A stretch of 64,000 nt of DNA, taken from NCBI GenBank assembly GCA_964106645.2, contig OZ067041.1. One strand, 5' to 3'. Below, one piece after another: positions 1 through 3,000 of the stretch. Made by a program: the position numbers. The stretch is from Podarcis pityusensis. Its lineage: Eukaryota. Every line of letters begins with the position of its first letter. The stretch's first letter is position 1.

Positions 1-3000
1 GGTGATTGATGTTCCCAGTGTTTTCCAGGATAACCCTAGACAACCAAGCACCTCGGAGGAGTCATCTTCTGAGGAGGAGCTGCCCCCTCAGCAGGTGGCC
101 GCTGCCAGCGACCCGGCCCCCCGTGACGACGCACCACGGGGCGGAAAGCGGAAGGCGAAGAAGCAGCACCGGTCGAAGAAAAGCAAGAAGAGGGACACTT
201 CGGACTCTGAGGAGGAAACAGGTACCTCTTCATCAGATGGGGATAGTGACACTCCAATGGAGACATATTGGGGGGAGGGGGAGGACGTTGGAGCCCCCCA
301 GTGGGTGCATGAACGGAGGGCCAACTCACACAGGAAGGCATTTAATGGCACGCTTGATTGGAAGGATGGGGCTCTGGTCCCAGACGTTAAAGTCTCAACC
401 AACGCTGCCACTGACTTTATTCTGGGGAACCACCTCTCTAAGAGGAAGAGGAACAAGATATTGAATGGCAATTACGTAGATATGTTTTCCTTGCTGCCCC
501 CAGCTCAGGTCAAGGGAAAAGGGGAAAAAATTAAGTACTATGGGAAAAGGAGGTACAGGGTACCCCGGGTAGAGCGAACGTTTGAGAATTGGCTTAATGG
601 CTATCAGGTGTTTATGGCTGTGGTGTCAAGTTGCTATCCTAAGAGGGGCGCGCACCTCGTGTCCTACCTGGCACACGTCAGGAGGGCACGGGAGCAGGCA
701 GGAGATGAAGCTGCTTTGGCGTATGATGAAGACTTTCGGAGGAATGCCTCGCTGCTGTCTTCAACGCGCTGGGACCAAAAGGACAACAATTGCTGGTTCG
801 AACATGTGGGGCTCAATATCGAGAAGAAAACCGCTCATCAGCCAAAAGCTGGTAAGGTGGAGACCCAACGCCGTAGGCAGTGCTGGGACTTCAACAAGGG
901 TATCTGTCAGCGCGTTACCTGTAAGTACCTGCACGAATGCGATAGGTGCTTAGGCAGCCACCCTGCAGTCAACTGCTTCAAAGGGAGGCAGCAGCCCTTT
1001 CGGGGGGGCAGGGGTCACCTCTCCCGGGGAAACAGGGGTGGCTCCGCCGGACCTGCAGCCCCCGCCCAAGGGCCAGCTGGGGCTCGTTACTAACATCTCC
1101 CTAGGCCTCGCGTGCTCTCTGATAAAATTGGAGCCATTGAGAGCACTCTTGAAGTTCTATCCAAATAGACGTGCAGCTCACCTACTGGAGGAAGGGTTTT
1201 CTGAAGGTTTTAGAATTCCGGTTGCTTTTACACCCAATTCCAGTTGCCCCCCTAACCAGAAATCAGTCTTAGAAAGGCCCGACATCGCGCTTAAAAAGAT
1301 ACAGAAGGAGATTACAGCCGGCAGGGTAGCCGGTCCATTCGCAACTCCGCCTATCGAGGGGCTTCATATCTCCCCGCTTGGTATTGTCCCAAAGAAGGCC
1401 CCCGGTGAATTTAGAATGATACACAACCTGTCCTATCCCAAAGGAACATCGGTTAACGACGCCATTCCCCAAGAGATGTGCACGGTGAAGTATTCTTCAT
1501 TCGATCAAGCTGTGCGGTTGGTGCGGAGCTTTGGCAGGGGCGCCTTTTTGGCAAAATGTGACATCGAGTCAGCATTTCGCCTACTCCCGGTTCACCAGGA
1601 AGACTACCGCTGGTTGGGTTTCAAATTCCAGGGAGCTTACTTCATTGACAAAGCTATGCCCATGGGTTGTTCTATTGCCTGTGCTGCGTTCGAGACCTTC
1701 AGCACATTCCTGGAATGGGCCCTAAAGTTTAGAACCGGTGCTCTAGGGGTGGGTCATTATCTCGATGATTTTATTTTGGTGGCAAGGGACGCTGGGGAGT
1801 GTAGGTCCCTCCTCCTAGCCTTCGAGTCCTTAGCCAGGGAACTGGGGGTCCCCCTGGCAGGTGAGAAGACCGAGGGTCCGGTCACTACCATGACCTACCT
1901 GGGCATTGAACTTGACACCGTAGCCCAAACCTCGCGCTTACCGGCTGAAAAATTGGTTGCCTTAAGAGAGCTTATCGGCCAAATGCTGCCCCTAAAGAAG
2001 GTCACCTTGAGACAAATTCAATCCCTCTTGGGGCACCTCAACTTTGCCTGCCGTGTAATTTCCCCCGGTCGCCCTTTCTGCGGCCGCCTGGCAAAGCTGT
2101 CCACGGGCTTACGGTCACCCCATCATAGGGTACGCATTCCCAAGGCAGTGAAGGCGGACCTCCTGGTTTGGTTGCAATTTCTGGACGGTTTCAATGGCAT
2201 ATCACTTTGGCAGGATAGTTTGGCGCTGCAGTCTGATTTCCAGGTACATTCGGATGCGGCCGGGTCCTTAGGTTTTGGGGTCTACTTCAGGGGCCAGTGG
2301 TGTGCCCAGCACTGGCCTCCCTCCTGGCAAGGTAAACCGATACTACGTGACTTGACATTCTTAGAATTCTTTCCCATCGTGGTTGCAATTCACTTATGGG
2401 AAGACCAGTTCAAGAACCATAGGGTCTGTTTTTGGACGGACAATCTAGCGGTCGTGTCAGTTTTGAATAAACAATCGTCACGCTCACCCAGAGTAGCGTC
2501 CCTTTTACGGTACTTCGTCCTCTCCTGCCTGCGGTTGAACCTTCACGCTTCAGCCAAGTTCGTCCCTGGTATTGATAATAACATCGCGGATGCTCTATCT
2601 CGTTTCCAGATGGAACGCTTTCGCTCATTGGCGCCGGATGCGCAGCAGCAGCCGCAACCATTCCCGGAGCACCTCTGGAATATTGGCAACGAGAAGCAAT
2701 AAAGGGAGTATTGTCTGCGCTAGCACCTTCTACCCTGAGATCGTATAATAAGGCGTGGCTAGACTTCACATCCTTCCGCATCAAAAAGGGGCGGTCCAAG
2801 CCAGGCAGGCCACCGTCCAAGTCTGAAGTCATAGAGTACATGGTCCACCTTAGAGATCTTGGCCGGGCCCCCAAAACCCTCAATATTCATTCAGCAGCTA
2901 TATCCTTCTTTTCTAAAACTTTATTTTCTGTGGATCCCTGTTCGCATTTCGTTGTGCGTAAGATGCTTGAGGGCTGGCGCAGGTCCAGGCCTCACGGCCG

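Follow-up and report, generated by a model that had tools for sequence, protein, structure and literature searches.

The Gag-Pol protein of a Ngaro-type retrotransposon in the genome of Podarcis pityusensis is very probably made by a +1 ribosomal slip at a UUU_CGN site, while its tyrosine recombinase (YR) and hydrolase are likely supplied by splicing as Gag-YR and Gag-hydrolase; this is the best explanation of the sequences compared here. The reading of the site as a +1 slip is strongly supported by comparison with related copies, which suggests that a signal known from other systems truly occurs, conserved across animals, in a class of element where it is new.

The window analysed was a stretch of 64,000 nucleotides of contig OZ067041.1 (assembly GCA_964106645.2), and its first 5.4 kb comprise the 3' three quarters of the element, with all features described below on the plus strand. 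The order of open reading frames (ORFs), gag, RT/RH and YR, is that of Ngaro, with the YR and finger matches to Pfam falling below cut-off. The gag ORF is open at the 5' end of the window, where its 3' part occupies 2..1093; its ATG (L140:3603) precedes the window by 398 nt, yielding a Gag of 496 aa by coordinates. A CCCH finger and a CCHC-type knuckle of Gag were recognised from the sequence at 881..976, with a weak match to Pfam zf-CCCH_10 (E 7e-4, below cut-off). The pol frame (954..2702), in +1 relative to gag, encodes a reverse transcriptase (RVT_1, E 4e-13) and a region, without a Pfam match, that we take from its motifs to be RNase H-like, ending approximately 37 codons past DALSR. It is followed by the YR frame at 2582..3574 (Phage_integrase, E 2e-5, just below cut-off) and by ORF4, an SGNH/GDSL-like hydrolase frame, at 3517..4221 (Lipase_GDSL_2, E 0.002, below cut-off). 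The repeats are the split direct repeats of Ngaro, arranged A1-[ORFs]-B1-A2-B2: A1, approximately 2 kb before the window (L140:1835-2064), is 100% identical over 230 nt to A2 (4643..4872), and B1 (4254..4651) is 99.7% identical to B2 (5039..5435). Also in agreement with Ngaro, no Pfam match to a methyltransferase was found, and the optional SGNH hydrolase after YR is represented by the weak GDSL match. The nearest annotated proteins are from lacertid lizards, with Xenopus homologues at about 50%.

The observed/expected CpG ratio, 0.69 in the element (1-4221) and 0.32 in its flank, fits a young insertion; identity to three other copies exceeds 99%. One 38-Mb contig of this genome (C19) holds a cluster of many copies, often decayed. 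The 5' leader contains a 31-nt tandem array of approximately 10 units (L140:2965-3274, about 1 kb before the window), with an acceptor-like TTTCAG downstream of the array, just ahead of the gag ATG; from its sequence, the long leader probably holds an intron. At 1119-1121 the window copy carries a private change, Leu in place of the Pro of sister copies, in the conserved SPIK at the start of pol.

The predicted +1 frameshift site CCC_TTT_CGG (E, P and A codons) lies in the gag frame at 995..1003, six codons past the last Cys of the knuckle, where the preliminary description had placed it; its Phe is residue 466 of Gag. Equally confirmed were the opening of pol at 954, after a TAG, in the +1 frame with a 140-nt overlap with gag, and the position of the first pol ATG, at 1416, inside the RT core (FRMIHNL). 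The sequence TTTCG alone is not rare, with seven occurrences in the first 4.3 kb of the element, of which that at 734 is likewise in the gag frame; it is the conservation of TTTCG, not its mere presence, that exceeds chance. As in sites of the PA-X type, UUU_CGN stands in the zero frame, the +1 frame is open downstream and the motif is conserved at synonymous positions. At the E site, 62 of 63 lizard copies have CCC or TCC, and distant lineages mostly have AAT, ACT or others. No consistent 3' stimulatory structure was detected (mean folding z -0.5 and 0.0). G_GGA_AAC at 1027 was discounted as a canonical -1 site, as it points to the third frame and not to pol, and no X_XXY_YYZ heptamer was found in the pol/YR overlap. 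A stop-directed +1 shift at the gag stop was likewise rejected, no slippery codon common to the stops being found.

Conservation within the genome was assessed at the level of codons. A DNA search yielded 30 close loci, 27 of which carry TTT_CGN. From the 150 matches listed by a protein search, 109 loci were analysed, namely the top 30 and 79 of the remaining 120, chosen across lineages; 11 had no recognisable knuckle and 98 were kept. Synonymous variation (TTC or AGR), which the preliminary description had named as telling against slippage, did not occur: TTC was absent from all 98 knuckle-bearing copies, as was AGR. The third codon was CGN in 86, a CpG-type transition (CAN, TGN) in 11 and GGN in one, and pol was in +1 in 87 and otherwise arranged in 11. 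A filter for intactness, which itself demanded the +1 arrangement, retained 63 copies in 23 lineages at 90% identity; the lineages share ancestry, and their counts are not independent events. Among these intact copies TTT was invariant (63/63), CCC was present in 61 and CGN in 62, with all four CGN codons in use and AGR never.

When synonymous changes were placed on the tree of the 63 copies, none fell in the Pro and Phe columns of the motif; the 28 further invariant Phe columns had 2-12 changes each and the 27 further invariant Pro columns 7-16. Across 343 columns with conserved residues (81 in gag, 262 in pol) the median was 9-10 changes, and only three columns had none: the motif Pro, the motif Phe and the Gly of a donor-like site in gag (CAG|GTAC) considered below. 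The motif Arg is never encoded by AGR, though AGR represents 51% of gag Arg codons; 2 of 27 other Arg columns likewise never switch. A second Phe-Arg in gag, GAC_TTT_CGG at 731..739, served as an internal control, and its codons are not conserved: just 19 of the 63 copies, and 5 of the 23 lineages, retained TTT_CGN, with TTC in 37 copies, TTT in 26 and AGR used 18 times. Twenty further copies were fetched, several of which had been picked for long fused frames; of the 18 with a knuckle, 17 carry TTT_CGN and 11 have the +1 arrangement.

If pol were entered upstream of the site, the need for Pro-Phe in pol and Pro-Phe-Arg in gag would force CCC TTT CG. A pol-frame stop was present within 45 nt 5' of the TTT in 25 of the 63 intact copies (at 14, 17, 23, 29 or 44 nt); double coding therefore cannot explain the codons of the motif. 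For the lineage representatives whose stops are at 14 and 23 nt, the interval contains only AAG or no start-like codon. Between the motif and the gag stop there were no +1 stops in 600 codons, an observation that is uninformative because only about one was expected (P 0.23).

Distant relatives were obtained by a pol alignment search and comprised the best 80 of 397 confirmed metagenome loci plus 17 loci from prokaryote genome bins, at approximately 40-50% identity. Several record titles name bivalve and tubeworm symbionts, and the loci would represent animal host DNA. Ngaro-like elements in prokaryote genome bins (L221-L230, L232-L235) and proteins labelled bacterial (P0150, P0153) are probably host contamination of symbiont assemblies. 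No relatives were found among the viral contigs scanned. In this set of the best 80 plus 17, pol was in +1 in 64 of 71 knuckle-bearing loci, and 61 usable loci resolved into 46 lineages at 85% identity. TTT_CGN was present in the gag frame within the overlap in 37 of the 46 lineages of the set, against an expectation of 21.5 and a maximum of 31 in 2000 synonymous shuffles, and the distribution of TTTCG by frame was 44:2:2. The density of the motif in the overlap was 8.4 times that of upstream gag, and 2.6 times in the last 160 gag codons (p 0.001), where TTC_CGN and TTY_AGR showed no excess. In the tree of the set, every main branch includes motif-bearing lineages. The motif was found only 5' of the zinc fingers in 18 lineages, in which the pol frame is open across the fingers, in one case from 2 nt before the motif, and at or after the knuckle in 19, in which pol often opens just there; the way the overlap was defined accounts in part for this correlation between motif position and pol opening.

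The conservation anticipated across relatives held for TTT in all 63 intact lizard copies and for TTT_CGN in most of the distant lineages, and failed in 9 of the 46. Three of the nine have TTT_CAN and six are without any TTT_C. Two loci (L228, L229) carry CCC_TTT_CAC and CCC_TTT_CAG at the place equivalent to the motif and are possible UUU_CAN variants; Pro-Phe-Arg/Gln, as read in frame in the pol models of two frogs, implies TTT_CAG-like variants. The outgroup nearest to the lizards, L141, has no TTT_C in the overlap, so its clade, to which many frog and iguanian elements probably belong, may use another signal. Members of this vertebrate-like clade (L141; P0059-P0070, P0097-P0104) have KGxxP at the start of pol and a +1 frame open across the zinc fingers.

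Besides the frameshift site, the element contains conserved splice-like signals. A phase-1 donor-like site, CAG|GTACCT, is located in gag at 219..227, where the exon would end at 221; its GGT is retained in 62 of 63 intact copies and all 23 lineages, and RefSeq model P0316 has its Gag-YR junction at the matching site. A phase-1 acceptor-like site for YR at 2591..2609 consists of a pyrimidine tract and CAG (2607-2609), and the YR frame opens just a few codons 5' of it. This CAG was invariant in the 57 intact copies with the motif and in the 23 distant lineages covered, in which Gln is otherwise CAA 372 times versus CAG 309 times. A second phase-1 acceptor-like site, for ORF4, is a YAG after a pyrimidine tract at 3626..3646 and stands at the same offset in all 19 other lineages covered. 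Joining the gag donor to either phase-1 acceptor would keep the reading frame. Among YR homologues with an N-terminal extension, 10 of 25 match Gag rather than Pol. In RefSeq models from lizards and frogs, YR begins with a Gag-like N-terminus, and the annotation models of Zootoca LOC118082278 comprise isoform X1, Gag 1-207 joined to YR at this junction, and isoform X2, full Gag. Supply of YR and hydrolase through the conserved splice-like signals is considered likely. Poulter and Butler 2015, as quoted in the available text of PMC13003380, proposed a frameshift for YR, whereas the signals described here point to splicing.

Since the element evidently has a conserved donor, pol might also be translated from a spliced mRNA, with the gag donor joined to an acceptor close to where pol begins, the motif being kept for some other reason. 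In the window TACTAAC..CTAG at approximately 1088-1104 is in phase 1, and RefSeq model P0053, from a Zootoca relative, joins the gag donor to pol codon 7. The former was rejected as a pol acceptor because it is not conserved, its AG being lost or shifted in intact copies of its own family (L035, L045-L047, L049). The acceptor position of P0053 is YAG in none of the 63 copies, and its junction would delete the conserved LAxSP(I/V) at the start of pol; the junctions of other fused RefSeq models are scattered. The CAG just 5' of the CCC was also discarded as an acceptor, having a purine-rich context and being CGG or CGC in some lineages. While YR and ORF4 have invariant acceptors, no pol acceptor is conserved across lineages: 5' of the RT core, at most 8 of 23 share any one phase-1 YAG position. 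Spliced pol leaves the motif itself unexplained and is regarded as very improbable.

An equally small probability is given to the motif being an RNA or cDNA cis element (for packaging, protein binding or regulation of splicing) or a constraint on the Gag peptide, with pol expressed by non-AUG initiation or by reinitiation at the gag stop. The gag stop (1091-1093 in the window) is situated 31 nt before the pol anchor in nearly all lizard lineages (L031-L139), a fixed distance although the length of the gag tail and the stop codon (TAA, TAG, TGA) vary, which would suit a cis element or reinitiation; one copy (L071) has a duplication with an earlier gag stop. In the distant loci, however, the position of the gag stop varies widely, and no conserved ATG for pol near the gag stop was found in lizard lineages. 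A nucleic-acid element would need no reading frame, yet TTTCG is strongly biased towards one frame in the distant lineages. Of 121 distant Gag proteins, 45 have the sequence FR after the knuckle, as a peptide constraint would have it, but such a constraint would not fix codons.

A subfamily of 12 near-identical copies (L258-L269) carries TCC_TTT_CGG and, after it, a G/C run whose length differs between copies. Because the run varies, only two of these copies read pol in +1; gag and pol form one frame in seven and pol is in the third frame in three. A true lineage with gag and pol in frame was rejected, since run lengths are scattered over the copy tree, and the variation is probably homopolymer assembly error or copy-level slips. 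Slippage of RNA polymerase or reverse transcriptase in the G-rich run after the motif, giving some in-frame gag-pol messages, could draw on this subfamily and on the seven G after the C in the window, but is extremely unlikely, as the run is broken in most lineages (CGT GGA GGC), the variation is scattered as for assembly error or copy-level mutation, and the invariant TTT is left unexplained.

In the preferred reading of a UUU_CGN slip combined with splicing, most ribosomes on unspliced RNA would produce the 496-residue Gag. A small share would slip +1 at CCC_UUU_CGN, the P-site tRNA-Phe moving from UUU to UUC while CGN occupies the A site, to yield a predicted Gag-RT-RNase H fusion of 1032 residues (length from coordinates); by analogy with PA-X and PLEKHM2, the rate would be approximately 1%. 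Splicing of the single phase-1 donor (221/222) to the acceptor at 2609 would give Gag(1-206)-YR of 527 aa, and to that at 3646 Gag(1-206)-hydrolase of 397 aa. Every enzyme would accordingly carry the N-terminus of Gag. It is likely, on the comparative data, that animal Ngaro elements from lizards to marine invertebrates share one ancient plan of this kind, with a UUU_CGN Gag-Pol slip and one donor serving two acceptors.

If true, these would be the first retroelements known to use the UUU_CGN signal and would comprise the largest natural set of such sites in animal genomes. UUU_CGN shifting, with a handful of RNA viruses and one or two genes of vertebrates as its examples, would then extend to a widespread group of retroelements. 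The many natural contexts would help in learning what tunes +1 slippage. Translation of the ATG-less downstream ORFs of tyrosine-recombinase retrotransposons has so far been a guess; the present analysis offers one 9-nt site and three candidate splice sites. Annotations in which invented introns force gag and pol into one product would need correction, as would the suggestion of a -1 frameshift for YR.

Among known systems, the yeast LTR elements Ty1 and Ty3 use another shift sequence and tRNA, and encode a protease and a DDE integrase. The predicted Ngaro fusion differs in having no protease domain. The likeness is that of a retrotransposon Gag-Pol made by a +1 shift, as mentioned in PMC3498833 and PMC5052127. 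The architecture is shared with amphibian Ngaro elements that have an SGNH hydrolase, such as DIRS-53_XT, in which gag, RT/RH, YR and SGNH all overlap and the repeats are A1-B1-A2-B2 (PMC9210276); the main text of that paper offers no mechanism of expression, with no occurrence of 'frameshift' or 'splic', and its supplements may list ORF overlaps. The preliminary description knew of no UUU_CGN shift in the YR-retrotransposon literature, and a literature search likewise returned no such report and no article that connects Ngaro or DIRS with UUU_CGN or with a gag/pol shift site of any kind; Repbase and the original Ngaro papers, outside that search, may mention gag/pol frameshifting generally. 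By term search, the available text of the Atkins 2016 review (PMC5009743) does not mention DIRS or Ngaro, and no UUU_CGN site in YR retrotransposons was matched in the available text of PMC3783388, PMC6681497, PMC3266345, PMC8547959, PMC9210276, PMC7192593, PMC9341512 or 10.1101/2021.01.25.428050.

The signal itself has counterparts in a vertebrate gene and in RNA viruses, described here from the available text of the respective papers. Human PLEKHM2 (UCC_UUU_CGG) shifts +1 at approximately 1.3% with the same P- and A-site codons as the window, likewise with no consistent 3' structure, and in a vertebrate cell, but is a host gene in which the shift truncates rather than extends the product (10.1101/2024.08.30.610563). 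Influenza A PA-X (UCC_UUU_CGU), with a +1 shift of 0.7-1.3%, shares the UUU_CGN core in frame 0, the product in +1 and the lack of an evident 3' structure; in tests of that site CCC in the E site was tolerated with a 40-70% loss, CCC and CGG were each weaker contexts than UCC and CGU, and UUC_AGA abolished the shift (PMC3498833). In contrast to the UCC of PA-X, the Ngaro E site is CCC in lizards and varied in distant lineages, and the Ngaro shift, as predicted from sequence, would supply the replicase of a retroelement. The UUU_CGN site between ORF1 and ORF2 of amalgaviruses resembles that of Ngaro in joining a structural ORF to a polymerase through a +1 overlap, in the use of all four CGN codons and in a minority of lineages without the motif (PMC5052127). 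There the product is the RdRp of a dsRNA virus, whereas in Ngaro it would be the RT of a retrotransposon, whose plan would add alternative splicing for two further enzymes.
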